A stretch of DNA of 44,535 bases, from positions 1 through 44,535 of the forward strand of contig JAPLCL010000074.1 in the NCBI GenBank assembly GCA_026392265.1, in the 5' to 3' direction. The stretch is from Actinomycetota bacterium (GTDB lineage: Bacteria > Actinomycetota > Thermoleophilia > UBA2241). Below the pieces are notes generated by a model that was not told the origin of the DNA, ran no database searches, and saw only the letters and a list, made by a program, of their open reading frames with translations. Positions 8,913-42,520 of the stretch are shown here, in pieces; the first letter of the stretch is position 1; each line of letters opens with the position of its first letter. Position numbers and translations under genes: made by a program.

Positions 8913-9030
8913 CTCACTGCGGTCGGGCGCGGGTCCACTGCACCCCGCGCGGGGTAGTAGTATGGCACGACCGCGCCCTGTCGGGGCGCGGCTTCGGTTT
9001 CGGCGGCCTGCCGCGTTAAAGGGGGACGGG
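8913..9030. promoter_or_regulatory. divergent iadA/cphA control region with GC palindromes
   Basis: A perfect 12-bp palindrome CCCCGCGCGGGG lies at 8943-8954. An AT-richer TAGTAGTAT patch follows. The hairpin/palindrome CCGCGCCC-tgtcg-GGGCGCGG is at 8971-8991. The cphA RBS is AAAGGGGGA. Confidence 0.4.
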
Positions 9031-11751: not shown

Positions 11752-12599
11752 CGTCGCCGAGCTCGGGCTGGACGGTGCTGATGGGCGGTTCCGGCGCGGA
11801 GGGCATGGACCGCTCGATCATGCACCGCTTCGTGGAGCTGGCCGGCGGCGCTGTGGACGCGCGCGTGGCCATCGTGCCGACGGCCAGCGAGCAGCGCGCC
11901 GACACCATCGAGCGCTACGAGAACGCCTTCGAACTTGAGGACGTGCACCACATCGAGGTCCTCGACATCCGCACGCACCATCACGCCGACCAGCCGGAGA
12001 CGCTGCAGGCGCTCGAGGACGCGACGGCCATCATGTTCACCGGTGGCGACCAGCTGCGCCTGCTGTCGATCCTTGAGGGCACGCGTTTCGTCGACGAGCT
12101 GCGGCGCCGCAGCCGTGACGGCCTCGTGGTGGGCGGTTCGAGCGCCGGCGCCATGGCGCTCGGCGACCCCGTGATCGTGCGCGGCGAGCCCACGCTGTTC
12201 TACGAGCCCGGCGCCATCTCCCAGGTGCCCGGCCTCGCCATCGTCCCGGGCGTGACCGTCGACACGCATCTCGTGGCGCGCGGGCGACTCACCCGCCTGC
12301 TGCCCGTGGTGGCGGCTCGCCCTGATGCGCTTGGCGTGGGCATCGAAGAGGGCAGCGGCTTGACGATGTCCCCGGACGGCCTCGCGACCGTGTTCGGCCC
12401 CGGCGTGGTGTGCATCGTGGACGGCGCCGCCGCGGCGCCGGCCGGAGGGCCGCGCCCCGGCGGCGTGCGCCCCGGCGGCGGCGAGGAGCGCCGCAGTACC
12501 GACCACGGCCGCGCCCTGTCGCTCACCGGCCTGCAGCTCCACGTGCTTGCTGCCGGCGATAGGTTCGACCTGCGCGGGCGCCGCGTCGTGTACGGCTGA
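11748..12599 (+). CDS. cphB: cyanophycinase (peptidase S51), no signal peptide, so intracellular type
   Basis: The GTG start overlaps the cphA stop (GTGA). VAIVPTASEQ, FTGGDQLRL and the nucleophile motif GGSSAGAMALG are S51/cyanophycinase signatures. Confidence 0.85.
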   Translation: MTSPSSGWTVLMGGSGAEGMDRSIMHRFVELAGGAVDARVAIVPTASEQRADTIERYENAFELEDVHHIEVLDIRTHHHADQPETLQALEDATAIMFTGGDQLRLLSILEGTRFVDELRRRSRDGLVVGGSSAGAMALGDPVIVRGEPTLFYEPGAISQVPGLAIVPGVTVDTHLVARGRLTRLLPVVAARPDALGVGIEEGSGLTMSPDGLATVFGPGVVCIVDGAAAAPAGGPRPGGVRPGGGEERRSTDHGRALSLTGLQLHVLAAGDRFDLRGRRVVYG

Positions 12600-12658
12600 C
12601 CCCGCGCCGCAGCACCACCACCAGCACCATCGACCCCCAAGCACAGGAGCATGCCGCC

Positions 12659-14593
12659 TTGGACGCGACCACACACTTCGACCTCAGTCATCTCCGGGCG
12701 TACCCGGGCCCCAGCGTCTCGCTGGCCGTCGAGGCGGTGGCCTTCGAGCTCTCGTCCGGAGGCGGCCTGCCCGGAGGTGACCTGTGGGCCGCGGTCCTGG
12801 GCCGCTTGCCCGGCCTGACCGGCGAGGAGCCGCCGCGCACGTTCGCCGAGCTCTTCGCGCGCGCCGTGATCGAGGTGCAGCGGCTCGATATGGGGCTGTT
12901 CGCGACGCGTTGGTCGGTCACCGCCGCGGACGACGGCGTCGTCACCGTCGCCGTGCAGTACGTCGACCCGGACGTGTGCCGGCGCTGCGTCGAGCTCGTC
13001 GCCGACTGGCTGCGCGACGAGCTCGAGGGCCGCGCCTTCGACTTCGACGCGCGCTACGCCGCGGTGCTGCGCCGCTTTCTGCGCAGCCACTTCGGCGGCC
13101 CCACCATCTACTCGCTGCTCGAGGCCGGCTACCGCGCGGGCATCCCGGACTTCTACCTGGAGAGCGAGGACGTGGTCCAGTGGGGCTACGGGCGCAAGCA
13201 GCTGCGCGGGCGCTCAACGGTGCTGCACCGCGACAGCATCAAGGATACGGAGCTGACCACCTACAAGGACCGCGCCAAGGCCTTCCTCGACGACCTCGGG
13301 CTGCCGGTGCCGCGCGGCGAGATCGTCTTCGAGCTGGATGAGGCTCAGCACGCCGCCGCGCAGCTCGGCTTCCCGGTCGTCACCAAGCCCGTCGCCGGGC
13401 ACAAGGGCCAGGGCGTGACCACCGGCATCTCGTCGGAGCGCGACGTGAAGATGGGCTTCGAGCTCGCCGCGCAGGCTTCGGGGAGCGCCGACGACGGCGT
13501 CATCGTCGAGCAGCAGATGGCCGGCACCGATCACCGCCTGCTCACCGTCGGCGGGCGCTTCGTCGCGGCCCTGCAGCGAGTGCCGGCTTATGTGGTCGGC
13601 GACGGCGAGCACACCGTGCAGGAGCTGATCGCGCTCGAGAACGCGCGCCCCGAGCGCGCCGACACGCCGCGCTCGCCGATGGGCAAGATCGAGGTCGACG
13701 ACAACCTCATGCAGCTCCTCGGCGACCAGGGCCTCTCCCTGCGGGACGTGCCGGCCCTCGGCGAGGAGCTGGTCCTGCGGCGCGTGGCCAACCTCTCGCA
13801 GGGTGGCGTGTCGGTCAACGTGACCGACGTCATCCACCCCCTCAACGCGAAGCTGGCCGAGGACGTCGCTCGATTCCTCGATGTGCACGTCCTCGGCATC
13901 GACGTGCTCGCCGAAGACATCACGCGACCGTGGACCGAGAGCCCCTGCGCGATCATCGAGATCAACGCCGGCCCCGGCGTGTTCATGCACCTCGTGCCTG
14001 CCCAGGGCGAGTCGATCGACGTGCCCTCCATCGTGCTTCAGGGCCACTTCCCGACGCCGCAGGCGGCGCGCGTGCCCGTGCTGGTGTTCAACCGCCTGGA
14101 CGCCGCAACGGCGATGCGCCTCACGGAGCTGGGCCTGCGCTGCCCCGGCGTCGAAGAGGTCGGCGTGACGCGCCTGGACGGCCTCTACTTCAACAACGAG
14201 CTCTTCAGCCGGCGGCCCGAGCATCTCGCCGACGTCCGTAACATGATGCGTAGCCCGCGCCTGGACATGGCCCTCATCGAGTACGACGAGCGTCACCTCC
14301 TCGACGAGGGCCTGTACAACTGGGGCGCCGACGTCGTCGTGCTCGAGCGCGCGACGCGCATAGAGCGTGAGACGCTCACGCGCGACCTGCAGCCCGGCGG
14401 CTTGGTGATCGAGGTCGACGAGGCCGCCGGCCTGCTGCACCTGACGCCGCGCGAGGGTGAGCCGTCCACGCGGCCGCTGGGGGACTCGCTGGCGGACAGC
14501 CTCGCCGATGCGCTCGCTGCCGTGCTTGCCGGCATGGCGGACTTCTACAACGTGCAGAACGCCGTCGACGGCAACTACGCGCGGCCGCACTGA
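12659..14593 (+). CDS. cphA2: CphA2-like truncated cyanophycin synthetase paralogue (N and G domains intact, M domain vestigial)
   Basis: TTG 12659 lies 8 nt after AGGAG. The ATP-grasp block GFPVVTKPVAGHKGQGV...GTDHRLLTVGGRFVAA...IEINAGPG parallels cphA. At the position of the CphA P-loop (IIAVTGTNGKTTTVRL) it reads VPVLVFNRLDAATAMRL. It has 644 aa against 906 aa for cphA. Confidence 0.75.
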   Translation: MDATTHFDLSHLRAYPGPSVSLAVEAVAFELSSGGGLPGGDLWAAVLGRLPGLTGEEPPRTFAELFARAVIEVQRLDMGLFATRWSVTAADDGVVTVAVQYVDPDVCRRCVELVADWLRDELEGRAFDFDARYAAVLRRFLRSHFGGPTIYSLLEAGYRAGIPDFYLESEDVVQWGYGRKQLRGRSTVLHRDSIKDTELTTYKDRAKAFLDDLGLPVPRGEIVFELDEAQHAAAQLGFPVVTKPVAGHKGQGVTTGISSERDVKMGFELAAQASGSADDGVIVEQQMAGTDHRLLTVGGRFVAALQRVPAYVVGDGEHTVQELIALENARPERADTPRSPMGKIEVDDNLMQLLGDQGLSLRDVPALGEELVLRRVANLSQGGVSVNVTDVIHPLNAKLAEDVARFLDVHVLGIDVLAEDITRPWTESPCAIIEINAGPGVFMHLVPAQGESIDVPSIVLQGHFPTPQAARVPVLVFNRLDAATAMRLTELGLRCPGVEEVGVTRLDGLYFNNELFSRRPEHLADVRNMMRSPRLDMALIEYDERHLLDEGLYNWGADVVVLERATRIERETLTRDLQPGGLVIEVDEAAGLLHLTPREGEPSTRPLGDSLADSLADALAAVLAGMADFYNVQNAVDGNYARPH

Positions 14594-15893: not shown

Positions 15894-17678
15894 ATGGAAA
15901 CGGTCTTGATGCTCGGTAACGAAGCGGTTGCGCGCGGAGCCTGGGAGGCCGGCGTGCAGGTCGCGGCTGCCTACCCGGGCACGCCCAGCACCGAGATCGT
16001 CACCAATCTGGCCAGGTACGACGGCGTGTACGCCGAGTGGTCCACCAATGAGAAGGTGGGCTACGAGGTCGCCCTCGGCGCCGCCATGGGCGGCGTGCGC
16101 GCCCTCACGGCAATGAAGAGCGCCGGCGCCAGCGTGGCCGCCGACCCGCTGATCAGCAGCGTCTACACCGGCATCTGTGGCGGCCTCGTCGTCATCGTCG
16201 CCGGCGACCCGGGCATGAGCAGCGGCATGACCGAGCAGGACGACCGCTACTTCGGCCGCATAAGCAGCATGCCGATGCTCGAGCCCGCCGACAGCCAGGA
16301 GTGCCACGATTTCACGCGGCTCGCCTTCGACCTCAGCGAGACCTACGACGTGCCGGTGATGGTGCGCCTCTCGATCCAGACGGCGCACCAGAAGTCCATC
16401 GTGCGCGTCGGCGAGCAGGTCGAGGTCGCGCGCAAGGACCCGGGCAGGCACACCGACAAGTACTGCCTGCTGCCGCGCTTCTCGCGCCCGCTGCACGCCG
16501 GACTGCTCGAGCGCGTCGCGCGCCTGCGCGAGTACGCGGAGGCCAGCCCGCTGACGCGCGTGGAGCCCGGTACGGGCGCCTTCGCGCGTATCGGCGTCAT
16601 CACCTCCGGCGCCGCCTACATCAGCGCCCGAGAGGCGCTGCCGGGCGCCACGTATCTCAAGCTCGGCATGGTGCATCCGCTGCCGCTCGAGGCCATCAGG
16701 CGCTTCGCGGCCACGGTGGAGCGCCTGTTCGTGGTGGAAGAGCTCGAGCCGTACCTGGAGGAGCAGATCCTCGCGGCAGGCGTGCCGGTCGAGGGCAAGC
16801 AGTGGTTCTCGCAGCTCGGCGAGCTCACGCCCGTGCGTGTCGGCCGGGGCTTCTTCGCCGCCGGCCTCGACCTGCCGCGCTGGGCGGAGCAGAAGGCCGC
16901 GGAGGACGACAGCGTCATCCCGCGGCCGCCCGTCCTGTGCACCGGCTGCCCGCACCGCGGCATGGCCACGGCCATGAGGAAGCTCGACCTCGACGTGCAC
17001 GGTGACATCGGCTGCTACGACCTCACCAGCCTGCCGCCTGTCAGCCACATGCACTCGGCCGTCGAGATGGGCGCCAGCATCCCCATGGAACAGGGGTTCA
17101 CGCGCGCCGGCGGCAGCAAGAAGGGCTCCCTCGCCGTCATCGGCGATTCGACCTTCTTGCACTCCGGCCTCACCGGGTTGCTCAACGCCGTGCACCAGCG
17201 CACCAGCGTCACCGTCCTCATCCAGGACAACAGCATCACCGCCATGACCGGTGGGCAGACCAACCCGGTCAACGAGAAGACGCTCGCGGGCGTGGCGACC
17301 AAGCCGGTCGACCTGGCCGCCATCTGCAAGGCGCTCGGGGTCGAGCACATCAAGATCGTCGACCCCTACGACTACGCAGCGTGTCTCGCGGCGCTGAAAG
17401 CCGGGCTCGCCTACGACGGCCCGGCCGTCATCATCACCAACCGGCCCTGCGTGCTCTTCCCCAGCAAGCTCGGCGCCGACGGCGTCTACGAGGTCGACGA
17501 GGCGCTGTGCAACGCCTGCCAGCAGTGCATGAAGCTCGGCTGCCCGTCGCTGCATCACACCGAGGCCGTGTTCAAGAAACGGCACAAGGTCGAGATCGAC
17601 GCGAGTACCTGCACAGGCTGCTCGCTCTGCGCCCAGCTCTGCAAACCAGGCGCCATCACGAAGGCAGGTGACGCATGA
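15894..17678 (+). CDS. iorA: indolepyruvate:ferredoxin oxidoreductase, alpha subunit
   Basis: The N-terminus LMLGNEAVARGAWEAGVQVAAAYPGTPSTEI, the TPP region, and the C-terminal ferredoxin-like clusters CNACQQCMKLGCP and CTGCSLCAQLCKPGAI support the call. RBS GAAGGAG. Confidence 0.85.
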   Translation: METVLMLGNEAVARGAWEAGVQVAAAYPGTPSTEIVTNLARYDGVYAEWSTNEKVGYEVALGAAMGGVRALTAMKSAGASVAADPLISSVYTGICGGLVVIVAGDPGMSSGMTEQDDRYFGRISSMPMLEPADSQECHDFTRLAFDLSETYDVPVMVRLSIQTAHQKSIVRVGEQVEVARKDPGRHTDKYCLLPRFSRPLHAGLLERVARLREYAEASPLTRVEPGTGAFARIGVITSGAAYISAREALPGATYLKLGMVHPLPLEAIRRFAATVERLFVVEELEPYLEEQILAAGVPVEGKQWFSQLGELTPVRVGRGFFAAGLDLPRWAEQKAAEDDSVIPRPPVLCTGCPHRGMATAMRKLDLDVHGDIGCYDLTSLPPVSHMHSAVEMGASIPMEQGFTRAGGSKKGSLAVIGDSTFLHSGLTGLLNAVHQRTSVTVLIQDNSITAMTGGQTNPVNEKTLAGVATKPVDLAAICKALGVEHIKIVDPYDYAACLAALKAGLAYDGPAVIITNRPCVLFPSKLGADGVYEVDEALCNACQQCMKLGCPSLHHTEAVFKKRHKVEIDASTCTGCSLCAQLCKPGAITKAGDA

Positions 17679-18337
17679 GTACGCCTGACGCGTGCGCCCT
17701 CCACTACGCGAACGGCGTCGTCGATGACATCATGGTCGTCGGCGTCGGCGGCCAGGGCGTGATCGTCGCGGCCGCCATCATCGCCGACACGGCCCTGCTG
17801 CACGGCGACCTCGAGGTCAAGCTCAGCGAGACCCGCGGCATGTCGCAGCGCGGCGGCAGCGTGAGCTCGCACATCCGCATCGGCAAATCCGTCGTGGCGC
17901 CGAGCATCAGCCCCGGCGAGGTGGACTACCTGCTCGCCTTCGAGAAGGCCGAGGGCTTGCGTCTGGCGCCCTCGGTCGTGCCCGGCGGCGTGGCCATCGT
18001 CAATACGCAGCAGATCGTGCCGCCGCTGGCCTCGTCGACCGAGTACGCGTACCCCTTCGACGCCATCGAGCGGATGAGAGGCGACAGCCACCCGGCGCGC
18101 ACCGACGGCCTCCGCCTCGCTGTGGTCGACGGCAATGCCATCGCCGCGCAGGCCGGCGACCTCAAGGTCGCCGGCGTCGTGCTGGTGGGCGCACTTTCCA
18201 CGTACCTGCCGTTCGCGGTGGAGACCTGGGAGCAGGCCATCGCCCGCAACGTGCCGGCGAGCTGGCTCAAGATGAATCTCGCCGCGTTCGCCGCCGGTCG
18301 GGGAGCGGGAGGTAGTGAAGGAAGCGAGCGGACATGA
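17675..18337 (+). CDS. iorB: indolepyruvate:ferredoxin oxidoreductase, beta subunit
   Basis: The ATGA overlap with iorA indicates translational coupling. IMVVGVGGQGVIVAAAIIADTALLHG...MSQRGGSVSSHIRIG is the pyruvate/ketoisovalerate oxidoreductase gamma-type domain. Confidence 0.8.
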   Translation: MSTPDACALHYANGVVDDIMVVGVGGQGVIVAAAIIADTALLHGDLEVKLSETRGMSQRGGSVSSHIRIGKSVVAPSISPGEVDYLLAFEKAEGLRLAPSVVPGGVAIVNTQQIVPPLASSTEYAYPFDAIERMRGDSHPARTDGLRLAVVDGNAIAAQAGDLKVAGVVLVGALSTYLPFAVETWEQAIARNVPASWLKMNLAAFAAGRGAGGSEGSERT

Positions 18338-19755
18338 ACGGTACGCCCGGCAGCATCACCAGCGGTACATCCAACGGTACCTCGAACGGAAAAGGCCCTT
18401 CGGGACATGCCTCGCGCGCGGCAGCGGCCGCCGGCGAGGGGCGCAGTTGCTTCGACCCCAAGCACGAAACGCTCGAGCTCGGCGCCCTGCGGGCGCTTCA
18501 GCTCGAGCGTCTGCGGGGGATGGTCACCGCCGCCTACGAGCGCAGCGCCGTGTACCGGCGGATGTGCCGCGAGGCCGGCGCCGCGCCCGCCGACATGCGC
18601 ACCCTCGACGACGTCCGCCGCCTCCCCTTCCTCGAGAAGACCACGCTGCGCGACACCTATCCGGACGGCCTGCGCCTCTGCGGCCTCGACGCCATCATCG
18701 AAGTCCACAGCACCTCAGGCACCACCGGCAAGCCCACGCCCATCTGGGTCACGCGCCGCGACATGGATGCCTGGGCGCTGCGCAACGCGCGCTCCCTGTG
18801 GATGGTCGGCCTGCGTCCCAGCGACCTTCTGCAGAACTGCTTCGGCTACGGGCTCCCGACAAGCGTGGGGCTGCAGTATGGTGCGCAGCACGCCGGCATC
18901 GGCGTCGTGCCCGCCGGCATCGGCCGCCAGGAGCTGCTCATCGACCTCATCATGGATCTGCGCGTGACGGCGCTCTGCACCACGCCTTCCTACGCGCTCT
19001 ACCTCGCCGAGAAGGCGAAGGAGCGCGGCATCGACCTGGCCACGGATTCGCAGCTGCGCATCGGCCTGTTCGGCGCCGAGCCCTGGCCCGAATCCGGTCG
19101 CGAGCGCCTGGCCGCCGCTCTGGGCGTCGAGGCGTTCAACGAGTACGGCATGGGCGAGCTTCTGGGACCGGGCATGGCGTGCGAGTGCCCGGTCAGAGAC
19201 GGCATGCACGTATGGTCGGATCACCTGCTCGTCGAGTGCATCGACCCGGAGACCTGTGAGCCCGTCGCCGAAGGCCAACCGGGCGAGCTCGTGTGGACCT
19301 CGCTGACCAGCGACTCCATGGCGATGATCCGCTACCGCAGCCACGACATCAGCTCGCTGAGCTGGGCACCCTGCGCCTGCGGCCGTACCCACCCCAGGAT
19401 CGGCCGCATCACCGGGCGCAGCGACGACGCGCTGTCCATCGGCGGCCTCGTCGTATTCCCCAGCCAGATCGAGGAAGTGCTGGTGCGCTTCGACGAGTTC
19501 GGCAGCAACTTCTGCATGGTGGTCGAGAACGTGAGCAACCTCGACCGGCTCACGCTGCAGGTGGAGATCCGCGGGTTCGACGAACTGAGTGACGACGGTA
19601 AGGCGCGGCTCGCGAAGACGCTTGCCGGCGGGGTGAAGGCCACGGTCGGCGTCACGCCGCGCATGGAGCTACACGCGCCGCTCTCGTTGCCGCGCGACAC
19701 CGACGGGCAGGGCAAAACGGCCTGCCACAGGGTGGACGACCGGCGCTCCTGCTGA
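18334..19755 (+). CDS. paaK: phenylacetate-CoA ligase family (aryl-acetate/acyl-adenylate forming) enzyme
   Basis: ATGA overlap with iorB. FDPKHETLELGALRALQLERLRGMV, HSTSGTTGKPT and YGMGE are PaaK-type motifs. A ~40-aa low-complexity N-terminal extension (TSGTSNGTSNG) leaves the exact start uncertain. Confidence 0.75.
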   Translation: MNGTPGSITSGTSNGTSNGKGPSGHASRAAAAAGEGRSCFDPKHETLELGALRALQLERLRGMVTAAYERSAVYRRMCREAGAAPADMRTLDDVRRLPFLEKTTLRDTYPDGLRLCGLDAIIEVHSTSGTTGKPTPIWVTRRDMDAWALRNARSLWMVGLRPSDLLQNCFGYGLPTSVGLQYGAQHAGIGVVPAGIGRQELLIDLIMDLRVTALCTTPSYALYLAEKAKERGIDLATDSQLRIGLFGAEPWPESGRERLAAALGVEAFNEYGMGELLGPGMACECPVRDGMHVWSDHLLVECIDPETCEPVAEGQPGELVWTSLTSDSMAMIRYRSHDISSLSWAPCACGRTHPRIGRITGRSDDALSIGGLVVFPSQIEEVLVRFDEFGSNFCMVVENVSNLDRLTLQVEIRGFDELSDDGKARLAKTLAGGVKATVGVTPRMELHAPLSLPRDTDGQGKTACHRVDDRRSC

Positions 19756-19761
19756 GGCCCA

Positions 19762-20607
19762 TCACCCCAGCGCCAGGCAGACCACGCCGGCCAGCACCAG
19801 GGCCGCGGCAAACCACTGCGCGGGGCGCAAGCGCTCGTGAAGCAGAGTCTGCGCCCAGACCACGGTGATGCCGGGGCTCAGCATGCCGAGCACGGCCACC
19901 ACGCTGAGAAGGCCGATCGTAGTGGCTGTCGTGTACAGCACGTTGGCCAGCGCCAGGAGCACGCCGACCAGCGCGAGCACTGGCACTGCCTTCGCGTGCA
20001 ACTTCAGCTTGGGCCGGCGGACGGCCAGCACTACGATCAGCAACAGGAGCGCCGACGCGCGCGCAAGGCCGACCGTCCAGTAGGGATCCCCCTCGCCGCC
20101 GTAGTCGTAGGCGATCAGGACCACGCCGATCATGAAGGCCGCGAACACCGCGAGGAGAATGCCCGCGCGATTGACGCGTGCTTTCGTCTCCGGCCGGTGC
20201 CGCTCGGGGCGCGAGATCAGGACGATACCGGCGATGGTCAGCAGCATGCCGGTAAGCTGGACGGCTCCCGGCCGCTCTCCGTGCGCTATACCCCACAGCG
20301 CCGGGACCACGGCGGCGCCGGCGAAGATCGGCGCGACCACGCTGATCGGGGCCAACGACATCGCCCTATACTCGGCGAGGGCGGTCACGGTGAGGGCCAG
20401 GCCCGCGATGACGGGGGCCACGAGGTCGGAGGCTTGTGGCGGCGCCGGCGCCGCCACGGCGAGGACGATGAGCGCCGTGACCAGCGCCGCGATCTGGCTG
20501 ACGAGCGCCACCGCCCAGGCGGTCGTGCGTCGCGACTCGAGGCCGCCAAGGAAATCGGAGGAGCCCCACAGGAGGCTCGCCGACAGAGCGAGCAGGGCGG
20601 CGAGCAT
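19762..20607 (-). CDS. EamA/DMT-family transporter
   Basis: Ten-helix hydrophobic profile. LLWGSSDFLGG and the duplicated EamA halves are visible. ATG 20607 is preferred over the GTG 20655 extension. TGA stop 6 nt from the paaK stop (convergent). Confidence 0.7.
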   Translation of the reverse strand: MLAALLALSASLLWGSSDFLGGLESRRTTAWAVALVSQIAALVTALIVLAVAAPAPPQASDLVAPVIAGLALTVTALAEYRAMSLAPISVVAPIFAGAAVVPALWGIAHGERPGAVQLTGMLLTIAGIVLISRPERHRPETKARVNRAGILLAVFAAFMIGVVLIAYDYGGEGDPYWTVGLARASALLLLIVVLAVRRPKLKLHAKAVPVLALVGVLLALANVLYTTATTIGLLSVVAVLGMLSPGITVVWAQTLLHERLRPAQWFAAALVLAGVVCLALG

Positions 20608-20766
20608 GGCTTGGTCACCTCTCGATGTGGGGGTCGGGCGCGGCCACGATACCACGCCTCCCTGCTCCAGGCTCGCGGCATGGGACGAACGCCCCGTAGA
20701 CGCCGCCCGCCCCGTGGCCTACGATGAGCGTAGCTCACCCCGGGTGTCTGAATGGAGGGCAGCGCC

Positions 20767-21612
20767 ATGAGCTACGACTCGATCCGTGCCCGTCTCAACC
20801 TGTACGCCGTGCTCCCCAACCTCGAGGACGTGGTGCGCGACGATCCGCAGATGCGGGCGCTCGTCAGCGACGCCCGCATCACCGTCAAGTTCCTCGTGGC
20901 CGGCGGCCCTTCGGCCTTCGTGCGTTTCGTCGGCGGTGTCTGCACTGTGGGGCGCGGGTCGGGGCCGGAGGCCGCAGGTGCTCCGGCCGGCTCGAGCGCC
21001 GCGTCAAGCGCGGACTCGAGCGCGACCCCCTCGGTCGTCCTCTCGTTTGCCTCGGCGTCGCACCTCAACAAGATGTTCGGCGGCACAGGCAGCCCCATCC
21101 CGTTGTGGGGCTTCACTCACCTGGGCTTTCTCAAGAACGAGTTCACCGAGCTTACCGACCGTATGGCGTACTACCTCGCGCCCAGCGAGGAGCTGCTCAG
21201 CCACCCCGGCTATCTGGCGATGAACACGCAGCTCACGCTGAACACGGCGGCCTTTGCCGTCCCGGTCCTGCTCGGCCACGACGCCGACTGCATCCCGCTG
21301 CGCCACGGGCTCACCCAGGGCACCATCGTCATCAAGGTGCTGCCCGACGGGCCCGCCGTGAGCCTCGTCTGCGGGGCCTCAGGTGTGCTCCCGGTCAAGG
21401 GTGAGCTCAGCCACCCGAGCGCGCTCGTATTGCTTCGCGACCTGCCCACCGCCAGCGCCTTCCTCAACGGCCGCCTCGACACGTTCGCCGCGGCGGTCAC
21501 CGGCGAGGTGCAGATCTGGGGGCGCATCGGCATGGTCGACACGCTCGCGCTGGTGCTCGATCGCGTCGGCAAGTACCTTACGCCGGCGGCTGAGCCCGCG
21601 GCGACCGCCTGA
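20767..21612 (+). CDS. hypothetical protein A, tandem SCP2-like (sterol/lipid-carrier-like) fold suspected; paralogue of 24734..25576
   Basis: ATG 20767 lies 7 nt after GGAGGG. LNLYAVLPNLEDVVRDDPQMRALV...VVLSFASASHLNKMFGG...FLNGRLDTFAAAVTGEVQIWGRIGMVDTLALVLDRV aligns by eye with LFLQAALPTVKVLLEDDPAMAKRF...ITFTFASLQKLNDFFAG...VMNKEVDFVDGVGKGYVRIDGSPEYAANLNDFMMRV of protein B. The C-terminal G-x-h-x-h-x-G pattern resembles SCP2. Confidence 0.45.
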   Translation: MSYDSIRARLNLYAVLPNLEDVVRDDPQMRALVSDARITVKFLVAGGPSAFVRFVGGVCTVGRGSGPEAAGAPAGSSAASSADSSATPSVVLSFASASHLNKMFGGTGSPIPLWGFTHLGFLKNEFTELTDRMAYYLAPSEELLSHPGYLAMNTQLTLNTAAFAVPVLLGHDADCIPLRHGLTQGTIVIKVLPDGPAVSLVCGASGVLPVKGELSHPSALVLLRDLPTASAFLNGRLDTFAAAVTGEVQIWGRIGMVDTLALVLDRVGKYLTPAAEPAATA

Positions 21613-21628
21613 GGAGGTCCGCGCAGCC

Positions 21629-22885
21629 ATGGACACGTATTCCTTCGCCAAGTCCCAGGAGCTCTTCGCCCGCGCCACCAAGGTGATCCCCTGCGGCATC
21701 CCCGGGCACTTCAGCCCGGCGCCGCTCGTCCCTCCGACAGCGTACCCCTTCTTCGCCATGAGCGGCACGGGCGCCCACTTCACCGACGTCGACGGTAACG
21801 ACTTCATCGACTACATGTGCGCCTACGGGCCCATGGTCCTGGGTTACGACAACAAGGTGGTGCACGACGCCGCCGCCAGGCAACGCAAGCTCGGCGACAC
21901 GCTCGGCGCCCCCGCGCCGGTGATGGTCGAGCTTGCCGAGAAGCTCACGGCGATGATCGCCGGCGCCGACTGGGCGTTCTTCGCCAAGAACGGCGGTGAC
22001 CAGACCAACTACGCGACGATGATCGCGCGGGCGGCCACCGGCCGCCCCCTCATCGTCGCCATCGAGGGCGGCTACCACGGCGTCGCGCCGTGGATGCAGG
22101 GCGCCGGCCACCACGGCGTCATCGCCGGCGACGTGGCCGGCTTCGTGCGCATCCCCTGGAACGACGTCGCCGCCTTCGTGCGCGTGCTGGCAGAGAACCC
22201 CGGCCAGATCGCCGGCTTCATCGCCACTCCGTACCATCACCCCACTTTCGCCGACAGCGAGCTGCCGGACCTGGGCTACTGGCAGAGTATCCGCGAGCTC
22301 TGCGACCGGCACGGCGTGGTCCTCATCGTCGACGATGTGCGCTGCGGCTTCCGTCTCAGCCTGCGCGGTTCTGCCGAGTTCTTCGGCTTCACCCCCGATC
22401 TGGCCTGCTACTGCAAGGCGATCGCCAACGGCTACCCGATCTCGGCGCTCGTGGGCATCGAGGCCCTCAAAGGCGAGGCCGCCAAGGTCTTCTACACCGG
22501 CAGCTACTGGTACCAGGCGGTGCCCATGGCGGCTGGGCTCGCCTGCCTCGCCGAGCTCGAGCGCCTCGATGCGCCCGCCAGGATGCAGGACTACGGCCGC
22601 GCCCTCACCGGCGGCATGCAGCGCCTCGCCGACGAGCATGGCTACGAACTCAAGGTCACGGGCGTGCCGAGCATGCCGTATCTGCGCCTCACCGACGACC
22701 CGAGCCTCATGCTGCACCAGCGTTTCTGCAGCGAGTGCGCGCGCCGCGGCGCCTACATGACCTCGCACCACAACTGGTTCATGAGCTGCGCACACACGCA
22801 GGACGACCTGGACCGTACCCTGGCGATCGTGGACGACGCGTTCGCGGCGCTGGAGAAGAGCCCCGAGGGGCAAGGGGGTAGCTGA
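21629..22885 (+). CDS. class III (HemL/GSA-like) PLP-dependent aminotransferase or aminomutase
   Basis: ATG 21629 follows GAGGAGG. FIDYMCAYGPMVLGY, NGGDQTNYATMIARA, LIVDDVRCGFR and the PLP-lysine context CYCKAIANGYPISALVG support the call. The ORF-track extension from 21383 overlaps the preceding gene. Confidence 0.8.
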   Translation: MDTYSFAKSQELFARATKVIPCGIPGHFSPAPLVPPTAYPFFAMSGTGAHFTDVDGNDFIDYMCAYGPMVLGYDNKVVHDAAARQRKLGDTLGAPAPVMVELAEKLTAMIAGADWAFFAKNGGDQTNYATMIARAATGRPLIVAIEGGYHGVAPWMQGAGHHGVIAGDVAGFVRIPWNDVAAFVRVLAENPGQIAGFIATPYHHPTFADSELPDLGYWQSIRELCDRHGVVLIVDDVRCGFRLSLRGSAEFFGFTPDLACYCKAIANGYPISALVGIEALKGEAAKVFYTGSYWYQAVPMAAGLACLAELERLDAPARMQDYGRALTGGMQRLADEHGYELKVTGVPSMPYLRLTDDPSLMLHQRFCSECARRGAYMTSHHNWFMSCAHTQDDLDRTLAIVDDAFAALEKSPEGQGGS

Positions 22886-23721
22886 TGCCACTGTCACCGG
22901 AGGAGATCAGGAGCCTGCAGGCCAAGGCCAGGCAGCTGCGCTGCGACATGGTCGACGTCACCGTGTGGGCCGGCGGCGCCCACATCGGCGGCGCCCTCAG
23001 CATGACCGACGTGCTGACGGCGCTGTACTACCACTACCTCAACGTGAAGCCCGCCGAGCCCGGCTGGCCGGAGCGCGACCGCTTCGTGCTCAGCAAGGGG
23101 CACGGGGGGGTCGGCCTTGCCGCCGTGCTGGCCGACAAGGGCTACTACAGCAAGGATCTGCTCAAGGAGTTCAACCACTTCAAGAGCCCGTTCGGCATGC
23201 ACCTCGACGGCAACAAAGTGCCGGGCGTCGACGCGAGCACCGGCTCGCTGGGGCACGGCCTGTCGATGTCGGTGGGGATGGCCTTGGGCGCCAGGTTCCA
23301 GAAGCAGTCCTGGCGCACCTACTGCCTGCTCGGCGACGGCGAGTGCAACGAGGGCTCCGTGTGGGAGGCGGCCATGGCCGCGCATCACTACAAGATCGAC
23401 ACCCTGACGGCGTTCACCGACCGTAACCACATGATGATCGACGGCCGCACCGAGGACATCATGAGCCTCGAGCCGCTGGCCGAGAAGTGGAGGGCCTTCG
23501 GCTGGGAAGTGCGCGAGATCGACGGCCACGACTACGCCCAGATCGGCGCGGCCATCGAGGGCGCCCAGGCTACGAAGGGCGCCCCCACGATGATCATCTG
23601 CAACACCGTCAAGGGCAAGGGCGTCGGCTTCATGGAAGACCAGGTGAAGTGGCACTACGGCAGCATCGACTCCGAGCTCGCCGCCAAGGCCAAGGCGTCG
23701 ATCACGGGAGGTGCGTCATGA
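22885..23721 (+). CDS. transketolase, N-terminal (TPP-binding) subunit
   Basis: TGATG overlap with the aminotransferase. GGAHIGGALSMTDVLTALYY, RDRFVLSKGHG, STGSLGHGLS and LLGDGECNEGSVWEA are split-transketolase subunit A motifs. Confidence 0.85.
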   Translation: MPLSPEEIRSLQAKARQLRCDMVDVTVWAGGAHIGGALSMTDVLTALYYHYLNVKPAEPGWPERDRFVLSKGHGGVGLAAVLADKGYYSKDLLKEFNHFKSPFGMHLDGNKVPGVDASTGSLGHGLSMSVGMALGARFQKQSWRTYCLLGDGECNEGSVWEAAMAAHHYKIDTLTAFTDRNHMMIDGRTEDIMSLEPLAEKWRAFGWEVREIDGHDYAQIGAAIEGAQATKGAPTMIICNTVKGKGVGFMEDQVKWHYGSIDSELAAKAKASITGGAS

Positions 23722-24734
23722 CCGAGGTCACCGGTACCACCTGGAACGTGTACGACGCCAACACGCTCACGCAGGCCGAGATCTACGGACGCGTGCTCTG
23801 CGACCTGGCCGAGGCAGACGCGCGCATCGTGGCGCTCACCGCCGATCTGGCGCGCAGCACCAAGATCGGCGTCTTTCAGGACAAGTTTCCGCAGCGCGTG
23901 TTCAACGTCGGCATCGCCGAGCAGAACCTCTTCGGCATCGCCGCGGGAATGGCGAAGAGCGGCCTGCTGCCGTTTGTCAGCACCATGTCGGCGTTCGCCA
24001 GTATGCGCGCGCTCGAGCAGGTGCGCACCGACATCTGCTACCAGAACCTCGACGTCAAGATCATCGCCACGCACGGCGGCGTGAGCTTCGGCCAGGCCGG
24101 CACCACCCACCACTGCACCGAGGACATCGCCATCCAGCGCTCGCTGGCCAACATGTGCGTGATCGTGCCGGCCGACGGCTGGGAGACGGCCAACGCCGTG
24201 CGCGCCGCGGTGCTGCGCCCCGGCCCCGTGTACATCCGTCTAGGCCGGGGCTTCGAGCCCACCCACTTCGAGAACGACGACTACGGCTTCGAGATCGGTA
24301 AGGCGGTGACCATCAACGAGGGCACCGACATCACGGTGATCGCCTGCGGCGTCGCCGTGTACCACGCCGCCGAGGCCGCCAAGCTGCTCAGGGACCAGGA
24401 CGGCATCAGCGTACGCGTCCTCGACGTGCACACCATCAAGCCCATCGACGAAGAGGCCATCATGGCGGCCGTCATCGACACGCGCCGCATCCTCGTCGTC
24501 GAGGAGCACAACGTGATCGGCGGCCTCGGCAGCGCCGTCGCCGACGTGATCGCCGCCAGCGGCAAGGGCTGCGCCTTCGCCAAGAGCGGCCTGCCCGATT
24601 GCTACAGCGAGGTCGGCTACCCGGAAGACCTCTACAGCCACTACTGCATCGACGGAGACGGCATCGTCGGCCAGGTGCGCGAGCTGTTGCATCGCGAGTT
24701 CGAGGCCGACGAGGATTGGCAGGACGAGCACTGA
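23718..24734 (+). CDS. transketolase, C-terminal (pyrimidine-binding) subunit
   Basis: ATGA overlap with the N-terminal subunit. FPQRVFNVGIAEQNLFGIAAGMA, FASMRALEQVR and THGGVSFGQAGTTHH support the call, together with a C-terminal transketolase domain. Confidence 0.85.
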   Translation: MTEVTGTTWNVYDANTLTQAEIYGRVLCDLAEADARIVALTADLARSTKIGVFQDKFPQRVFNVGIAEQNLFGIAAGMAKSGLLPFVSTMSAFASMRALEQVRTDICYQNLDVKIIATHGGVSFGQAGTTHHCTEDIAIQRSLANMCVIVPADGWETANAVRAAVLRPGPVYIRLGRGFEPTHFENDDYGFEIGKAVTINEGTDITVIACGVAVYHAAEAAKLLRDQDGISVRVLDVHTIKPIDEEAIMAAVIDTRRILVVEEHNVIGGLGSAVADVIAASGKGCAFAKSGLPDCYSEVGYPEDLYSHYCIDGDGIVGQVRELLHREFEADEDWQDEH

Positions 24735-25576
24735 TGGGCGCGCACCCTGCGCCTCGCGCCCCGGCCCACGACCTGCCGCAGGCGCGCACCCGCGAGTTCC
24801 TCCGCACGCGCCTCTTTCTGCAGGCCGCATTGCCCACCGTCAAGGTGCTGCTCGAGGACGACCCGGCGATGGCGAAGCGCTTCGCGCACGTCCACGCCAC
24901 GGTGCAGTTCGTGGCCAAGAATCAGCCCCACCCGGTGGGCGCCTATCTGTGGTTCGAGAACGGCGAGGTCCGCGTGGAGCAGGGCTTCTGGGACGCCGGC
25001 GGCGGCGCCCCCAGCCCCGACATCACCTTCACGTTCGCCTCGCTGCAGAAGCTCAACGACTTCTTCGCCGGCAAGACGCTGCTGCCCGGCATCAAGGGGT
25101 TCCACCGGCCCGCGCTGCTGACCAAGGTCGTGCAGCTCCTCCTCGCGCTCAAGCTGATGCTGCCGAGCTCGAACCCCACCGATCCGGCCAAGCGGCGCCT
25201 CAAGCTCAAGCTCACCCTCTACATGATCACCACCGCTCTGAGCCAGTACAACAAGGGCGGCGACCCCGAGATGGAGCGCTGGACGGCCAAGCAGCCCGAC
25301 CGCATCTACCAGTTCTCGGTCGAGCCCGAGGGCATCGCCGCCTACCTGCGCGTGCGCGCGGGGCAGACCAAAGCCGGGCGGGGCGTCTACGAGCGCCGCC
25401 GCCCCTTTGTCCACATGCGTTTCAACGGCGTCGACGGCGCCCTCGCGGTGATGAACAAAGAGGTCGACTTCGTGGACGGCGTGGGCAAGGGCTACGTGCG
25501 CATCGACGGCTCGCCAGAGTACGCCGCCAACCTCAACGACTTCATGATGCGCGTGCAGAGCTTGCTCACCGGCTGA
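24734..25576 (+). CDS. hypothetical protein B, tandem SCP2-like fold suspected; paralogue of 20767..21612
   Basis: TGATG overlap with the transketolase C subunit. See protein A for the alignment. The ORF-track extension from 24599 is inside the preceding gene. Confidence 0.45.
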   Translation: MGAHPAPRAPAHDLPQARTREFLRTRLFLQAALPTVKVLLEDDPAMAKRFAHVHATVQFVAKNQPHPVGAYLWFENGEVRVEQGFWDAGGGAPSPDITFTFASLQKLNDFFAGKTLLPGIKGFHRPALLTKVVQLLLALKLMLPSSNPTDPAKRRLKLKLTLYMITTALSQYNKGGDPEMERWTAKQPDRIYQFSVEPEGIAAYLRVRAGQTKAGRGVYERRRPFVHMRFNGVDGALAVMNKEVDFVDGVGKGYVRIDGSPEYAANLNDFMMRVQSLLTG

Positions 25577-25606: not shown

Positions 25607-26281
25607 CTACGCCCGACGCGCCCGGTAGAACCCCAACGCCGCCAGCCCGAGCGCCACGATGAACAGGCAGACCGACGCGGTGCGAACTACGTTCGCGATG
25701 GCGTCGGTCGACTCGAGCCAGCCCAGCGTGCCGAGGATGTTGTGCCAGTCGTGGCCGGCACCGGAGCCGTCGTCGCCGACCAGGGACAGGACCATGTCCT
25801 GGGCGTCGGCGACGTAGATCGAGACGTTGTTCAGCGACTCAGCCGCCCAGGCGAGGAGGACGATCACCGCGAAGTCGTCGCGGCGCCACCAGAAGAAGGC
25901 GGCGATGATCAGCGGCAGCGCCACCTGGTTGATGGACCCGCCCATCTGCATGAGCAGGGTCGGCGCCCACACGAAGAGTACGTGGCCGATCTCGTGGACG
26001 ACGAGATCGAACGGCGAGAGGATCGGGATCCAGCCGTGGGTCGCAAACGTGGCCCAGGCGAGCGCGACGACGATCGCCGCGGCTACCGCCCATTGCAGAG
26101 TCATCGACCAGAGCGTCGGCTGCGCCGCGGCGGGCTGTCGCCGGGGAAGGCGGGCGAAGAAGCCGGTGCGCGGGGCGCGGGCGCCTGTGCTCGCGGCGGG
26201 GCGCCCGATCTGCTCGAGCGGCTGCGGGACCGCGGCCGGAGCTGCGGCGGGCGGCGTCTGACTCTCAGTGGTTTCCATCAT
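25607..26281 (-). CDS. integral membrane protein with HExxH motif (putative M50-like metalloprotease)
   Basis: FDLVVHEIGHVLFVWAP sits within a multi-helix hydrophobic protein. The N-terminus is Pro/Ala-rich. TAG stop. Confidence 0.5.
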   Translation of the reverse strand: MMETTESQTPPAAAPAAVPQPLEQIGRPAASTGARAPRTGFFARLPRRQPAAAQPTLWSMTLQWAVAAAIVVALAWATFATHGWIPILSPFDLVVHEIGHVLFVWAPTLLMQMGGSINQVALPLIIAAFFWWRRDDFAVIVLLAWAAESLNNVSIYVADAQDMVLSLVGDDGSGAGHDWHNILGTLGWLESTDAIANVVRTASVCLFIVALGLAALGFYRARRA

Positions 26282-28884: not shown

Positions 28885-29238
28885 ATGGATCTCGTGCGCG
28901 ACGCCGTGCTCGGCGTGGAGTTCGAGATCGACCCGCGCTTCGCGCGCCTCGACGCGGCTGCCGAAGACGGGGCGGGGGGCAACGGTGATGCGGGCGCGGC
29001 GGCGGTCGCTGCCGGGCAGGTGGATCTGCCGACGGCGCATTTCATCGCCGCGCGGCCGGCCGAAGGCTGGATCGCGGCGCTCGCTTCTGGCCATGCGGCT
29101 CATGGTCCAGCCACCGGAGCTCTGGGATACCGATCGGGACGCGCTCGAGCTCTCCTTCCGGACGCTCGCGCTCATCTGACCCAACGGGGCCCGCGCTCTA
29201 CGGCAACGCCACCCACGAGACGGCCATTGTCATCTTGA
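28885..29238 (+). CDS. small hypothetical ORF with an apparent frame change near 29085
   Basis: ATG 28885 lies 5 nt after GGAGGAG. GC3 is strong for about 65 codons (MDLVRDAVLGVEFEIDPRFARLDAAAEDG...). GC3 then collapses in this frame, while the +1 frame (LLAMRLMVQPPELWDTDRDALELSFRTLALI*, stop 29177-29179) becomes GC3-rich. Confidence 0.3.
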   Translation: MDLVRDAVLGVEFEIDPRFARLDAAAEDGAGGNGDAGAAAVAAGQVDLPTAHFIAARPAEGWIAALASGHAAHGPATGALGYRSGRARALLPDARAHLTQRGPRSTATPPTRRPLSS

Positions 29239-29261
29239 CCATTTCTGGTCATACTGTGACC
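29229..29261. promoter_or_regulatory. putative antitoxin operator: two GTCA-N-TGAC palindromes abutting the vapB start
   Basis: GTCAtctTGAC is at 29229-29239 and GGTCAtactgTGACC at 29247-29261, immediately before ATG 29262. Confidence 0.4.
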
Positions 29262-29600
29262 ATGAAGAGCGTGTCCGTCGCCGAACTCAAAGCCAAGCTC
29301 AGCCACTACCTTCGCGAGGTCCGCGAGGGCGCGTCGTTCACCGTCGTCAGCCGCGATATCCCGGTGGCGACCCTTGGTCCGTACGAGCCGGAGGACATCG
29401 ACGATCTCGAGATCATCGAACCCACAGAGGACCCGGCATTGTGGGGCACAGTCGTCCTGCCGCCGCTCGGACGGTCGATCGACGTGGTCGCCCTTATCCG
29501 CGACGATCGCGACGCTCGCGATCTGCGGCTCGATCGTGTGGCTGAGGAAGCCATCCGGGCACGTCGTGCGGCAGACGAGCCGCCGGAGGCTGAGTCATGA
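29262..29600 (+). CDS. vapB: type II antitoxin, Phd/YefM-like N-terminus
   Basis: MKSVSVAELKAKLSHYLREVREGASFTVVSRDIPVATLGP is the Phd/YefM fold signature. The C-terminus is acidic. ATGA overlap with the PIN toxin gene. Confidence 0.75.
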   Translation: MKSVSVAELKAKLSHYLREVREGASFTVVSRDIPVATLGPYEPEDIDDLEIIEPTEDPALWGTVVLPPLGRSIDVVALIRDDRDARDLRLDRVAEEAIRARRAADEPPEAES

Positions 29601-30013
29601 TCGCCTACGTCGACTCGTCGGTCATCCTTCGCTTCGTGCTTCAGCAGCCCGATACGCTGACGGCCCTTCTCGACTTCGACGAGCGCGTGACCTCCTTTCT
29701 TGCGGAGGTCGAGTGCATGCGTGCCATCGAAGCAGCGCGCCTTCTTCGTCGGCTCAGTACGGACGAATCCGGTGAGCGGCGGCAGCTTGCTTACAAGCAT
29801 CTCAGGCGCATGCGACGCCTGATGCCGTCGTTGTCGATCTTGCGTAGGGCGGGAGAGCCGTATCCCGTCGCGCTCAAGACCCTTGATGCCGTTCACTTGG
29901 CCACAGCGCTCACGTGGCGCGATCGACGAGCGCCTGACCTCGTGTTCGCGACGCACGATCATCAGCTGGGCCGCGCCGCGCTCGCGCTGGATTTCGAGGT
30001 CATCGGGCTGTAG
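29597..30013 (+). CDS. vapC: type II toxin, PIN-domain ribonuclease
   Basis: The MIAYVDSSVIL start carries the first PIN acidic residue. LDAVHLATAL and FATHDHQLGRAA are conserved distal motifs. 138 aa. Confidence 0.8.
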   Translation: MIAYVDSSVILRFVLQQPDTLTALLDFDERVTSFLAEVECMRAIEAARLLRRLSTDESGERRQLAYKHLRRMRRLMPSLSILRRAGEPYPVALKTLDAVHLATALTWRDRRAPDLVFATHDHQLGRAALALDFEVIGL

Positions 30014-33779: not shown

Positions 33780-34234
33780 TGAGTCACGAGTACACAGCCG
33801 AAGACATCACCTGGGCGACACGCAGACTCGACATAGCCATGTCGCGCCTCATGGTCGCCCTGTCTCGCGAGGTCGGTATCAGCGTCCCCGAGATGCTTGC
33901 GCTCGAGTATCTGGACGTCGACGGGAGCGTCGGCCCGAGTGAACTGGCGCGCCGGTTGCAGATGACCTCGGGGGCGATGACCGCGCTCGTCGATCGCCTC
34001 GAGCAGAGTGGCCACGTGGTGCGCGAGCGGCATCCCGCCGACCGCCGCAGGGTCCTTGTGACGCGCACGCAGAAGGCAGACGAGGATCTCACCGCGGAGA
34101 TCGCGCCCATGGCGCTGGAGATCCTCGAGCTGGCCGAGGGCCTGGACGACGCCGAGCGTCAGGCCGTAGGCCGATTCTTTGACGGCTTCATCGCGATCAT
34201 CGAAAGCACCGCTGCTGAGGCGTGCGCCCGATGA
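33779..34234 (+). CDS. MarR-family transcriptional regulator
   Basis: ISVPEMLALEYLDVDGSVGPSELARRLQMTSGAMTALVDRLEQSGHVVRERHPADRRRVLVTRT is the canonical MarR winged helix-turn-helix including the DRR wing motif. Confidence 0.85.
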   Translation: MSHEYTAEDITWATRRLDIAMSRLMVALSREVGISVPEMLALEYLDVDGSVGPSELARRLQMTSGAMTALVDRLEQSGHVVRERHPADRRRVLVTRTQKADEDLTAEIAPMALEILELAEGLDDAERQAVGRFFDGFIAIIESTAAEACAR

Positions 34235-34304
34235 CGTGCAGGCACACAAGACCCGACATCGCCGTCTTTGTCGACGGCGCTCACGACTGAAGAAGGAGCA
34301 CGAC

Positions 34305-42310: not shown

Positions 42311-42457
42311 CGTCGGTGCCTCTGCTCGTGGCGACCATTCGACGCCCGTCGCCGCGTCGTGTATACTCCCCTGCGCCATCAAGAGGGAGCTTGCGAGCAC
42401 CCCACCCTGCGCCTGTCACCGGCCGACAGGGTCCATCACGAGAAAGGAGATCGTGAG

Positions 42458-42481: not shown

Positions 42482-42520
42482 CCGTATATGGGTAGACCAT
42501 TTTCTCCAAGAGACAAGTTC

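Follow-up and report, generated by a model that had tools for sequence, protein, structure and literature searches.

A conserved five-gene cassette uniting a FumI-type aminotransferase and a split transketolase with double SCP2-fold proteins, possibly for the breakdown of long-chain amino-diols

Contig JAPLCL010000074.1 of assembly GCA_026392265.1 (Actinomycetota, Thermoleophilia, UBA2241) contains an operon that encodes an aminotransferase (AT), the two chains of a split transketolase (TktN and TktC) and two flanking proteins, A and B. The window, by which we mean the whole stretch of DNA that was analyzed, covers positions 1-44,535 of the forward strand and has a G+C content of ~69%. The five genes of the operon are the following:

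20767-21612, + strand: protein A, 281 amino acids, open reading frame (ORF) with a GGAGGG Shine-Dalgarno-like motif upstream
21629-22885, + strand: AT, 418 amino acids, Pfam Aminotran_3
22885-23721, + strand: TktN, 278 amino acids, Pfam Transketolase_N
23718-24734, + strand: TktC, 338 amino acids, Pfam Transket_pyr and Transketolase_C
24734-25576, + strand: protein B, 280 amino acids, Pfam SCP2 at residues 38-114

An earlier, sequence-only reading of this DNA had described a tightly coupled same-strand operon, and direct inspection of the sequence agreed at every junction: A and AT were separated by a 16-nt gap, AT and TktN were joined by TGATG (1-nt overlap), TktN and TktC by ATGA (4-nt overlap), and TktC and B again by TGATG (1-nt overlap). 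Purine-rich Shine-Dalgarno-like stretches preceded all five starts. A consensus scan revealed no sigma-70-like promoter and found terminator-like sites at background level, both scans being uninformative for such an organism.

Neighbourhood conservation, which the same reading had proposed as a check, was assessed in a one-genome-per-species scan, which yielded 80 loci in which the five proteins were mapped by simple ORF and tblastn calls; individual loci are cited by number. The nearest relatives of the window were Thermoleophilia and other Actinomycetota metagenome bins, the closest being L018, in which protein B was 95% identical. The order A-AT-TktN-TktC-B was found in 52 loci from eight phyla (Actinomycetota, Spirochaetota, Myxococcota, Desulfobacterota, Verrucomicrobiota, Bacteroidota, Chlorobiota and Hydrogenedentota), and the carriers included Leptospira biflexa (Spirochaetota) and the cultured Desulfoluna spongiiphila and D. 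butyratoxydans (Desulfobacterota). This arrangement is far beyond chance. TktN-TktC-B occurred without A-AT in 18 further loci, for example in Parendozoicomonas callyspongiae, Poribacteria, Abyssobacteria and Syntrophaceae. A adjoined AT in all 52 AT loci away from a contig edge and was never found without AT, and the A-AT pair was mobile as a unit, being inverted in L043 and located after B in L071. B followed TktC in almost all of the 80 loci, with contig edges as the exceptions, and the 1-nt overlap between TktC and B was also present in the distant relatives L081 and L082. Because A and AT are inseparable and mobile and TktN-TktC-B also stands alone, the system consists of two modules, each with an enzyme and its own double SCP2-fold partner.

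Apparent fusions of TktC with B (L037) and of A with AT (L060) were discarded as frame extensions by comparing the reading frames of their coordinates. In two Spirochaetes loci without A-AT (L075, 4071-5462; L076, 2576-6194), an unrelated class III aminotransferase with 25-28% identity was present upstream of TktN-TktC-B. In L076, an aldehyde:ferredoxin oxidoreductase (AOR) was located between this aminotransferase and TktN-TktC-B, and AOR homologues were found in both loci. The aminotransferase of L075 and L076 may be a non-orthologous replacement of the first module.

AT matched Pfam Aminotran_3 with 114 bits. Among solved structures, the top match was the aminopentol aminotransferase FumI (6HBS), with 327 bits and an E value of 1e-96, and the best HemL scored 159 bits. 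The alignment with FumI showed 41% identity over 401 residues (E 1e-103), that is, over the full length of the class III pyridoxal 5'-phosphate (PLP) fold, and cassette aminotransferases of every lineage were 37-43% identical to FumI over ~400 residues. All 48 family members kept the PLP lysine (Lys263) and 43 of the 48 kept Asp236, and both residues aligned with their FumI counterparts. The sequence-only reading had called AT HemL-like, a designation that we had to abandon: TIGR00713 scored 211 bits against a cut-off of 527 and NF000818 scored 225 against 398, and the FumI match was far stronger. As judged from these comparisons, AT is a class III PLP aminotransferase of the FumI type.

FumI from Sphingopyxis sp. 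MTA144 deaminates hydrolysed fumonisin B1 at C2 to yield a 2-ketone; its substrate is a long-chain vicinal amino alcohol, a 2-amino-3-ol that mimics sphinganine, and the enzyme uses pyruvate as the amino acceptor with a Km of 1.1 uM for the lipid (PMC3136697). Among proven fumonisin transaminases, pairwise identities are 62-75% (PMC9858248). Since the cassette enzymes share only ~40% identity with FumI, they form a separate sister branch and are not fumonisin enzymes as such. The genetic setting differed as well, as the cassette AT was always accompanied by the SCP2-fold protein A and the transketolase, whereas neither was found at FumI-type loci.

TktN matched Transketolase_N with 169 bits and shared 48% identity with the N chain (6YAK) of the Carboxydothermus hydrogenoformans split transketolase, and TktC matched Transket_pyr with 135 bits and Transketolase_C with 99 bits and was 43% identical to 6YAJ. 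The two-subunit transketolase expected from the earlier reading was thus confirmed, with all three Pfam domains (PP, Pyr and TKC) on two chains. The C. hydrogenoformans enzyme is likewise of a two-chain α2β2 type and has its thiamine diphosphate (ThDP) site and catalytic histidines in common with the cassette enzyme (PMC7661550). An alignment was made of 63 N subunits and 78 C subunits of related loci together with the C. hydrogenoformans enzyme and the human one, whose published landmark residues fell at the expected positions. TktN retained the equivalents of human H37, K75, H77, H110, D155, N185, K244 and H258 in 63 of 63 members, and TktC retained those of S345, E366, H416, H428 and R474, the catalytic H416 (E. 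coli H461) in 77 of 77. Consequently, the ThDP/metal motif (D155, G156, N185 and E366) was present in all members, and the catalytic histidine set of human H37/H77/H110/H258/H416, which corresponds to E. coli H26/H66/H100/H261/H461, was complete.

In contrast to this conserved core, the acceptor side of the active site was altered. The substrate aspartate that binds the acceptor C2 hydroxyl (E. coli D469, human D424, yeast D477) was replaced by alanine in 77 of 77 members (A127 in the window), and the canonical glutamate preceding it was Gln, Ala, Thr or Ser in nearly all. The salt-bridge partner of this aspartate (E. coli R91, human R101) was asparagine in 63 of 63 TktN sequences. Near the catalytic histidines, TktN also showed four family-specific changes, G109M, Q127H, G259Y and S35G in human numbering, each in 63 of 63 members. 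Within the phosphate-binding set, the arginine equivalent to human R318 (E. coli R358) was Ala in 62 of 78 sequences, including A20 of the window TktC, and Arg in 11, while the equivalents of E. coli S385, H461 and R520 were kept. The cassette enzyme therefore differs from that of C. hydrogenoformans in the substrate Asp, its Arg partner, the phosphate Arg and the residues at positions 109, 127 and 259, and it is always followed by B. With the acceptor Asp and its partner replaced throughout, and the phosphate Arg usually so, the expectation that this is no ordinary sugar-phosphate transketolase was upheld. Judging from the residues retained, the histidines for the donor C1 hydroxyl would fit a hydroxymethyl ketone rather than a methyl ketone, and three kept phosphate ligands out of four would fit a sugar-phosphate co-substrate.

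These results bear on a housekeeping explanation, in which a split transketolase of the pentose-phosphate pathway and a HemL enzyme of tetrapyrrole synthesis happen to be co-transcribed with two unrelated small proteins. The Pfam and NCBIfam family names, transketolase and glutamate-1-semialdehyde aminomutase, speak for it, as does the fact that enzymes like that of C. hydrogenoformans, though split, are genuine transketolases (PMC7661550). However, the HemL equivalog models reached only 211-225 bits against cut-offs of 398-527, TktC has no counterpart of the Asp that the human and C. hydrogenoformans enzymes share with 68 of its 150 nearest representatives, and the five genes travel together across eight phyla. 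The housekeeping explanation is already contradicted by these observations, and we consider the chance that it is correct to be very slight.

A search with TktC among 50%-identity cluster representatives returned 23,475 relatives. Asp occupied the D469 column in 68 of the best 150, as it does in the human and C. hydrogenoformans transketolases, and Leu, Ala and Gly did so in 23, 13 and 10, respectively. The idea that the Asp-to-Ala change is unique to the cassette family was rejected, as the column varies in many split transketolase-like families, and the change marks specialisation rather than the function of the cassette alone. By the same comparison, non-canonical split transketolase-like enzymes are a large unexplored group, of which the cassette family is one specialised branch. 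Many uncharacterised specialised split transketolase families seemingly lie among the 150 nearest TktC representatives.

A change at the same position has been engineered. The D469T variant of E. coli transketolase, which was reached by substrate-walking from phosphorylated through non-polar aliphatic to aromatic aldehyde acceptors, breaks the D469-R91 salt bridge and makes room for aromatic aldehydes (PMC5073344). The natural family has altered both sides of this bridge, a change equivalent to the engineered one. Engineered transketolase-transaminase cascades for 2-amino-1,3-diols run the same two reaction types in series. Such cascades are artificial and run in the synthetic direction with hydroxypyruvate and small substrates and without carrier proteins, whereas the natural cassette likely runs in reverse on a probably lipidic substrate.

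We found no curated family name for A or B in Pfam and NCBIfam scans. The window copy of A had no Pfam match, and B matched Pfam SCP2 (PF02036) in its N-terminal half with 23.7 bits (residues 38-114, cut-off 21.3), the sole SCP2 match in the window. The same family was matched by 6 of 22 relatives of B and 4 of 23 relatives of A. In the protein collection, B had 687 relatives, which were called hypothetical protein wherever the source gave a name. The proposal that the two ~280-residue flanking proteins are paralogous was correct: A and B aligned across their first ~110 residues (BLASTP E 9e-11), and comparison of their family-alignment profiles matched the N-terminal halves to each other with 99.1% probability (E 6e-19) and the C-terminal halves with 97.6% (E 3e-12). 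The N-terminal half of A also matched its own C-terminal half in hhalign (96.9%).

The profile search and structure prediction that the earlier reading had suggested revealed an SCP2 ligand-carrier fold in both proteins. The AlphaFold2 models (pLDDT 84.8 for A and 75.7 for B) each contained two α/β domains. When they were compared with the PDB in Foldseek, UbiJ-SCP2 and SCP2 proteins were on top for A and the top matches for B were all SCP2 proteins, in each case with a probability of 1.0 and TM scores normalised to the target of 0.54-0.65. SCP2 likeness had been predicted for the C-terminal halves; the fold was as predicted, but it was not confined to those halves, since both halves of A and of B adopted it in the models. 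From the profiles and the models, A and B are full-length paralogues, each a tandem of two related SCP2-fold domains.

The same fold (Foldseek probability 1.0, TM ~0.6) is found in UbiJ/UbiT and in the SCP2 domains of MFE-2 and alkylsulfatases. In the case of UbiJ, a soluble SCP2 protein holds the lipid tail while soluble enzymes act on the head group. A and B differ from UbiJ in that they are tandem double domains without a significant sequence match to it and are paired one-to-one with an aminotransferase and a transketolase, and B has invariant polar residues and a basic loop. At a threshold of at least 95% conservation, B had 55 conserved positions (80 sequences) compared with 27 in A; many of those in B were polar and clustered in the C-terminal domain, and residues 206-224 formed an invariant Arg/Lys/Gly-rich loop that was disordered in the AlphaFold model. 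Because of the many invariant polar residues and the invariant basic loop, the pattern of constraint in B suggests docking on the transketolase or a role more active than simple carriage.

We then compared the neighbours of the cassette. Of 69 loci, 21 had a TetR gene within 500 bp, and 15 had an aldehyde dehydrogenase or AOR within 7 kb. In a Flavobacteriaceae locus (L059), A was immediately preceded on the same strand by an aldehyde dehydrogenase of the oxidising NAD(P) type, and AOR adjoined the cassette in L068, L075 and L076. A gene of the long-chain-fatty-acid-CoA-ligase type lay directly upstream of A in a Leptospiraceae locus (L020), and a lipase-like hydrolase occupied this position in a Verrucomicrobia bin (L042). 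In L081, the cassette was preceded by a DHA2 drug-efflux pump of the major facilitator superfamily and followed by a beta-lactamase-family hydrolase, and in L055 it was accompanied by an SNF transporter. As judged from the gene families, the neighbourhood resembles an inducible locus for the catabolism or detoxification of an amphiphile.

Two features lie upstream of the operon in the window:

19762-20655, - strand: EamA/DMT (drug/metabolite transporter) gene, Pfam EamA 78.7 bits, divergent from the operon with a 111-nt spacer
15894-19755, + strand: indolepyruvate:ferredoxin oxidoreductase alpha and beta (IorAB) and a PaaK-like aryl-acetate-CoA ligase, with overlapping stops and starts, just upstream of EamA

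The divergent EamA gene had also been noted correctly in the sequence-only reading. It was found upstream of the cassette in L018 as well and was not beside the cassette outside the lineage of the window, the efflux pump of L081 or the SNF transporter of L055 taking its place there; its membership in the system is uncertain. IorAB-PaaK was rejected as a part of the system, since an opposite-strand gene intervenes and linkage to the cassette was not found outside close relatives. A PaaK relative was also located upstream in L010, which probably reflects lineage synteny.

The fum cluster, like the cassette, pairs an aminotransferase with a ThDP enzyme, in this case of the acetolactate synthase (ALS) type, and it is catabolic and linked to TetR. 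In Sphingopyxis granuli, a fum-like cluster contained FumI, TetR, a FumD-type esterase, a TonB receptor and a divergent ALS-type ThDP enzyme. The gene for the latter (L083, 12509-14212), located beside FumI and the TonB receptor, had a best NCBIfam score of 271 bits, which was under every cut-off, and its product might cleave the 2-keto-3-hydroxy compound that FumI generates. An ALS-like ThDP enzyme encoded near the cassette in Desulfoluna was considered as an orthologue and set aside as probably unrelated, as it shared 28% identity and was a bona fide acetolactate synthase by the cut-off. TetR regulators common to FumI loci and cassette loci were also discounted, being alike only in the helix-turn-helix region.

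The best-supported chemistry, on the basis of these relationships, would be that of a transketolase and a transaminase acting on a lipidic 2-amino-1,3-diol or ketol. We favour the reading, to which we would give a little less than an even chance, that the cassette degrades or detoxifies a sphingoid-base-like long-chain 2-amino-1,3-diol through a two-module pathway on its polar head. We infer the class of substrate, the sequence and direction of the steps and the roles of A and B as follows. In the first module, A would hold the alkyl chain of the amino-diol while AT would pass the amino group at C2 on to a keto acid, which by comparison with FumI would probably be pyruvate, to yield a 1,3-dihydroxy-2-ketone. 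Because this product is a hydroxymethyl ketol, it would formally be a transketolase donor; fumonisin, by comparison, is a 1-deoxy (methyl) compound, and transketolase needs a hydroxymethyl ketone. In the second module, the ThDP enzyme would attack the C2 carbonyl of the ketol and cleave the C2-C3 bond; an aldose would receive the two-carbon glycolaldehyde unit from ThDP, and the remainder would leave as a fatty aldehyde shortened by two carbons. B would present or remove the lipid, probably while docked on the transketolase. The aldehyde would proceed to beta-oxidation via aldehyde dehydrogenase or AOR and acyl-CoA ligase, which are encoded nearby in other lineages. The catabolic direction is favoured because TetR, oxidising aldehyde dehydrogenase or AOR, acyl-CoA ligase, hydrolases and efflux pumps are found nearby and because FumI itself is catabolic.

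Several points weigh against this breakdown of amino-diols. Aldehyde-oxidising neighbours were present in only the 15 loci mentioned above, with none in this window. As the transketolase reaction is reversible, its direction cannot be fixed from gene content alone, and all of the chemistry is drawn from relatives by analogy. FumI-type genes are present in Proteobacteria without an A, B or transketolase partner. The phosphate ligands S345, H416 and R474 are kept and R318 is present in 11 members, and a phosphorylated partner or substrate is thus possible. The many invariant polar residues of B are unlike those of a passive carrier, and the SCP2 fold also serves in non-lipid roles, such as the auxiliary domains of MycE and SpnK, which were among the Foldseek matches of B. 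Finally, a 3R ketol would result from D-erythro sphingoid bases, whereas the donors and products of canonical transketolases have the 3S configuration; the amino alcohol of fumonisin is 2S,3S (threo). Because of this mismatch, the true substrate may be threo-configured, or the stereopreference of the transketolase may have changed.

The opposite direction had been put forward in the sequence-only reading, which regarded the operon as a natural transketolase-transaminase cascade for making an amino-diol. The combination of both enzymes on a lipidic amino-diol or ketol was supported in part by our results, but the biosynthetic direction appeared less likely than catabolism. In a biosynthetic pathway, a ketol C2 unit from a ketose phosphate or hydroxypyruvate would be added to a fatty aldehyde held by B, and AT together with A would aminate the product to an amino-diol without serine palmitoyltransferase. 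This pathway would use the same enzymes and the same reversible chemistry, and the altered active site favours an aldehyde acceptor that is neither hydroxylated nor phosphorylated (PMC5073344). The gene divergent from the operon in this window encodes a transporter of an exporter-type family, acyl-CoA ligase and AOR could in principle supply aldehydes, and, by our own reasoning, canonical 3S specificity would give the threo product with no unusual enzyme needed. However, the nearest characterised relatives of AT are all catabolic (PMC3136697, PMC9858248), and the aldehyde dehydrogenases linked to the cassette belong to the ordinary oxidising NAD(P) type, not to the CoA-acylating reductases. 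Moreover, TetR, hydrolases and drug-type efflux pumps are what is typically seen where compounds are catabolised or detoxified, the neighbours of the cassette included no recurrent acyltransferase, ceramide synthase or head-group enzyme, and the aminotransferase was wholly absent from 18 loci. We consider biosynthesis to be unlikely, although still a serious rival.

The lipid tail of the substrate can also be questioned, as the cassette could act on another hydrophobic compound, such as an aromatic amino alcohol of the phenylserinol/chloramphenicol-base type, a xenobiotic or natural amino-polyol, or a primary amine that is first deaminated to an aldehyde, which the transketolase would then extend. 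Replacement of D469 in the E. coli enzyme also admits aromatic aldehydes (PMC5073344), the in-operon aldehyde dehydrogenase of L059 scored best against the benzaldehyde dehydrogenase MdlD (399 bits, under the cut-off), and the IorAB/PaaK-like set upstream in this window is of an arylpyruvate kind. SNF-type and efflux transporters suit many amphiphiles, and the HemL/FumI relatives include the aldehyde-aminating enzymes GntE and PigE. On the other hand, FumI is by far the closest characterised relative (327 bits vs at most 159), and the presence of two double SCP2-fold proteins dedicated to the cassette speaks for a long hydrophobic tail. A long-chain acyl-CoA-ligase type gene adjoins the cassette in L020. 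The IorAB-PaaK set is separated by the opposite-strand gene and unlinked outside the lineage of the window. A substrate of this kind seems improbable to us.

Within the favoured breakdown of sphingoid-like amino-diols, a more specific proposal can be made, although we regard it as rather doubtful. In bacteria of many phyla, the cassette would constitute an undescribed sphingoid-base route independent of ATP and of sphingosine-1-phosphate (S1P) lyase, in which FumI-like transamination is followed by a C2-C3 cut by an Asp-less transketolase with B as an obligatory lipid-presenting or catalytic subunit. The head group would be salvaged as a C2 unit on a sugar phosphate, and the fatty aldehyde would be freed. 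Run backwards, the same cassette would provide a synthesis of sphingoid-like bases independent of serine palmitoyltransferase. In eukaryotes, sphingoid bases are broken down by sphingosine kinase, S1P lyase, fatty aldehyde dehydrogenase and acyl-CoA synthetase, a route that requires ATP and in which the 1-phosphate is split by a PLP retro-aldol lyase. The two routes would be similar in that cleavage between C2 and C3 yields a fatty aldehyde that is oxidised and activated to acyl-CoA; they would differ in that the cassette contains neither kinase nor lyase and would rely on transamination followed by ThDP chemistry, with the C2 unit saved as sugar carbon.

Other genes of the window were also recorded:

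8569-14593, + strand: region containing a cyanophycin synthetase of 1060 amino acids with Cyanophycin_syn, ATP-grasp and Mur ligase domains
11748-12599, + strand: S51 cyanophycinase-like peptidase, 4-nt overlap with the cyanophycin synthetase
12659-14593, + strand: second ATP-grasp protein, after the cyanophycinase-like peptidase
25607-26281, - strand: predicted membrane protein of 224 amino acids with no Pfam or NCBIfam match, convergent with B
29235-30013, + strand: gene pair (121 and 138 amino acids) with an ATGA overlap and, as judged from the ORFs only, a VapB/VapC-type toxin-antitoxin look
34179-35084, + strand: heliorhodopsin gene, Pfam PF18761, 320 bits
35174-36175, - strand: linear-amide C-N hydrolase, Pfam CBAH 144 bits
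40048-41070, - strand: CorA Mg2+ transporter, next to the cytochrome gene
41142-42155, + strand: multihaem c-type cytochrome with Cytochrome_C7 and c3 motifs
42359-43045: IF-3, next to the cytochrome gene

The 224-residue membrane protein was near the cassette in 12 Thermoleophilia-like loci, at a variable distance, and absent in other phyla. The distant relative L081 likewise carries a heliorhodopsin gene (16211-16984), ~5 kb away from its cassette. The CBAH superfamily includes acid ceramidase and N-acylethanolamine acid amidase (NAAA), and a ceramide-type amidase this close to the cassette (10 kb) would be suggestive.

A search of the open-access literature (PubMed Central and bioRxiv) revealed no paper linking transketolase, a FumI-like aminotransferase and SCP2-fold proteins. 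The kinds of enzyme are known; new are the way in which they are combined, the fact that the sugar-binding Asp has been lost in nature, the SCP2 partners paired one-to-one with the enzymes and the presumed lipid substrate. Free sphingoid bases are antimicrobial and abundant in eukaryote-derived organic matter, and to our knowledge their degradation is largely unknown for most bacteria. If our reading is true, a widespread route of transamination and ThDP-dependent cleavage would fill this gap, transketolase would have a new natural reaction class in which lipid ketols take the place of sugar phosphates, and nature would employ the same active-site change as protein engineers. The enzymes may be of use for making or degrading chiral 2-amino-1,3-diols and for detoxifying mycotoxins that are sphinganine analogues. 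The cassette also defines a new and strongly conserved family of double SCP2-fold partner proteins.

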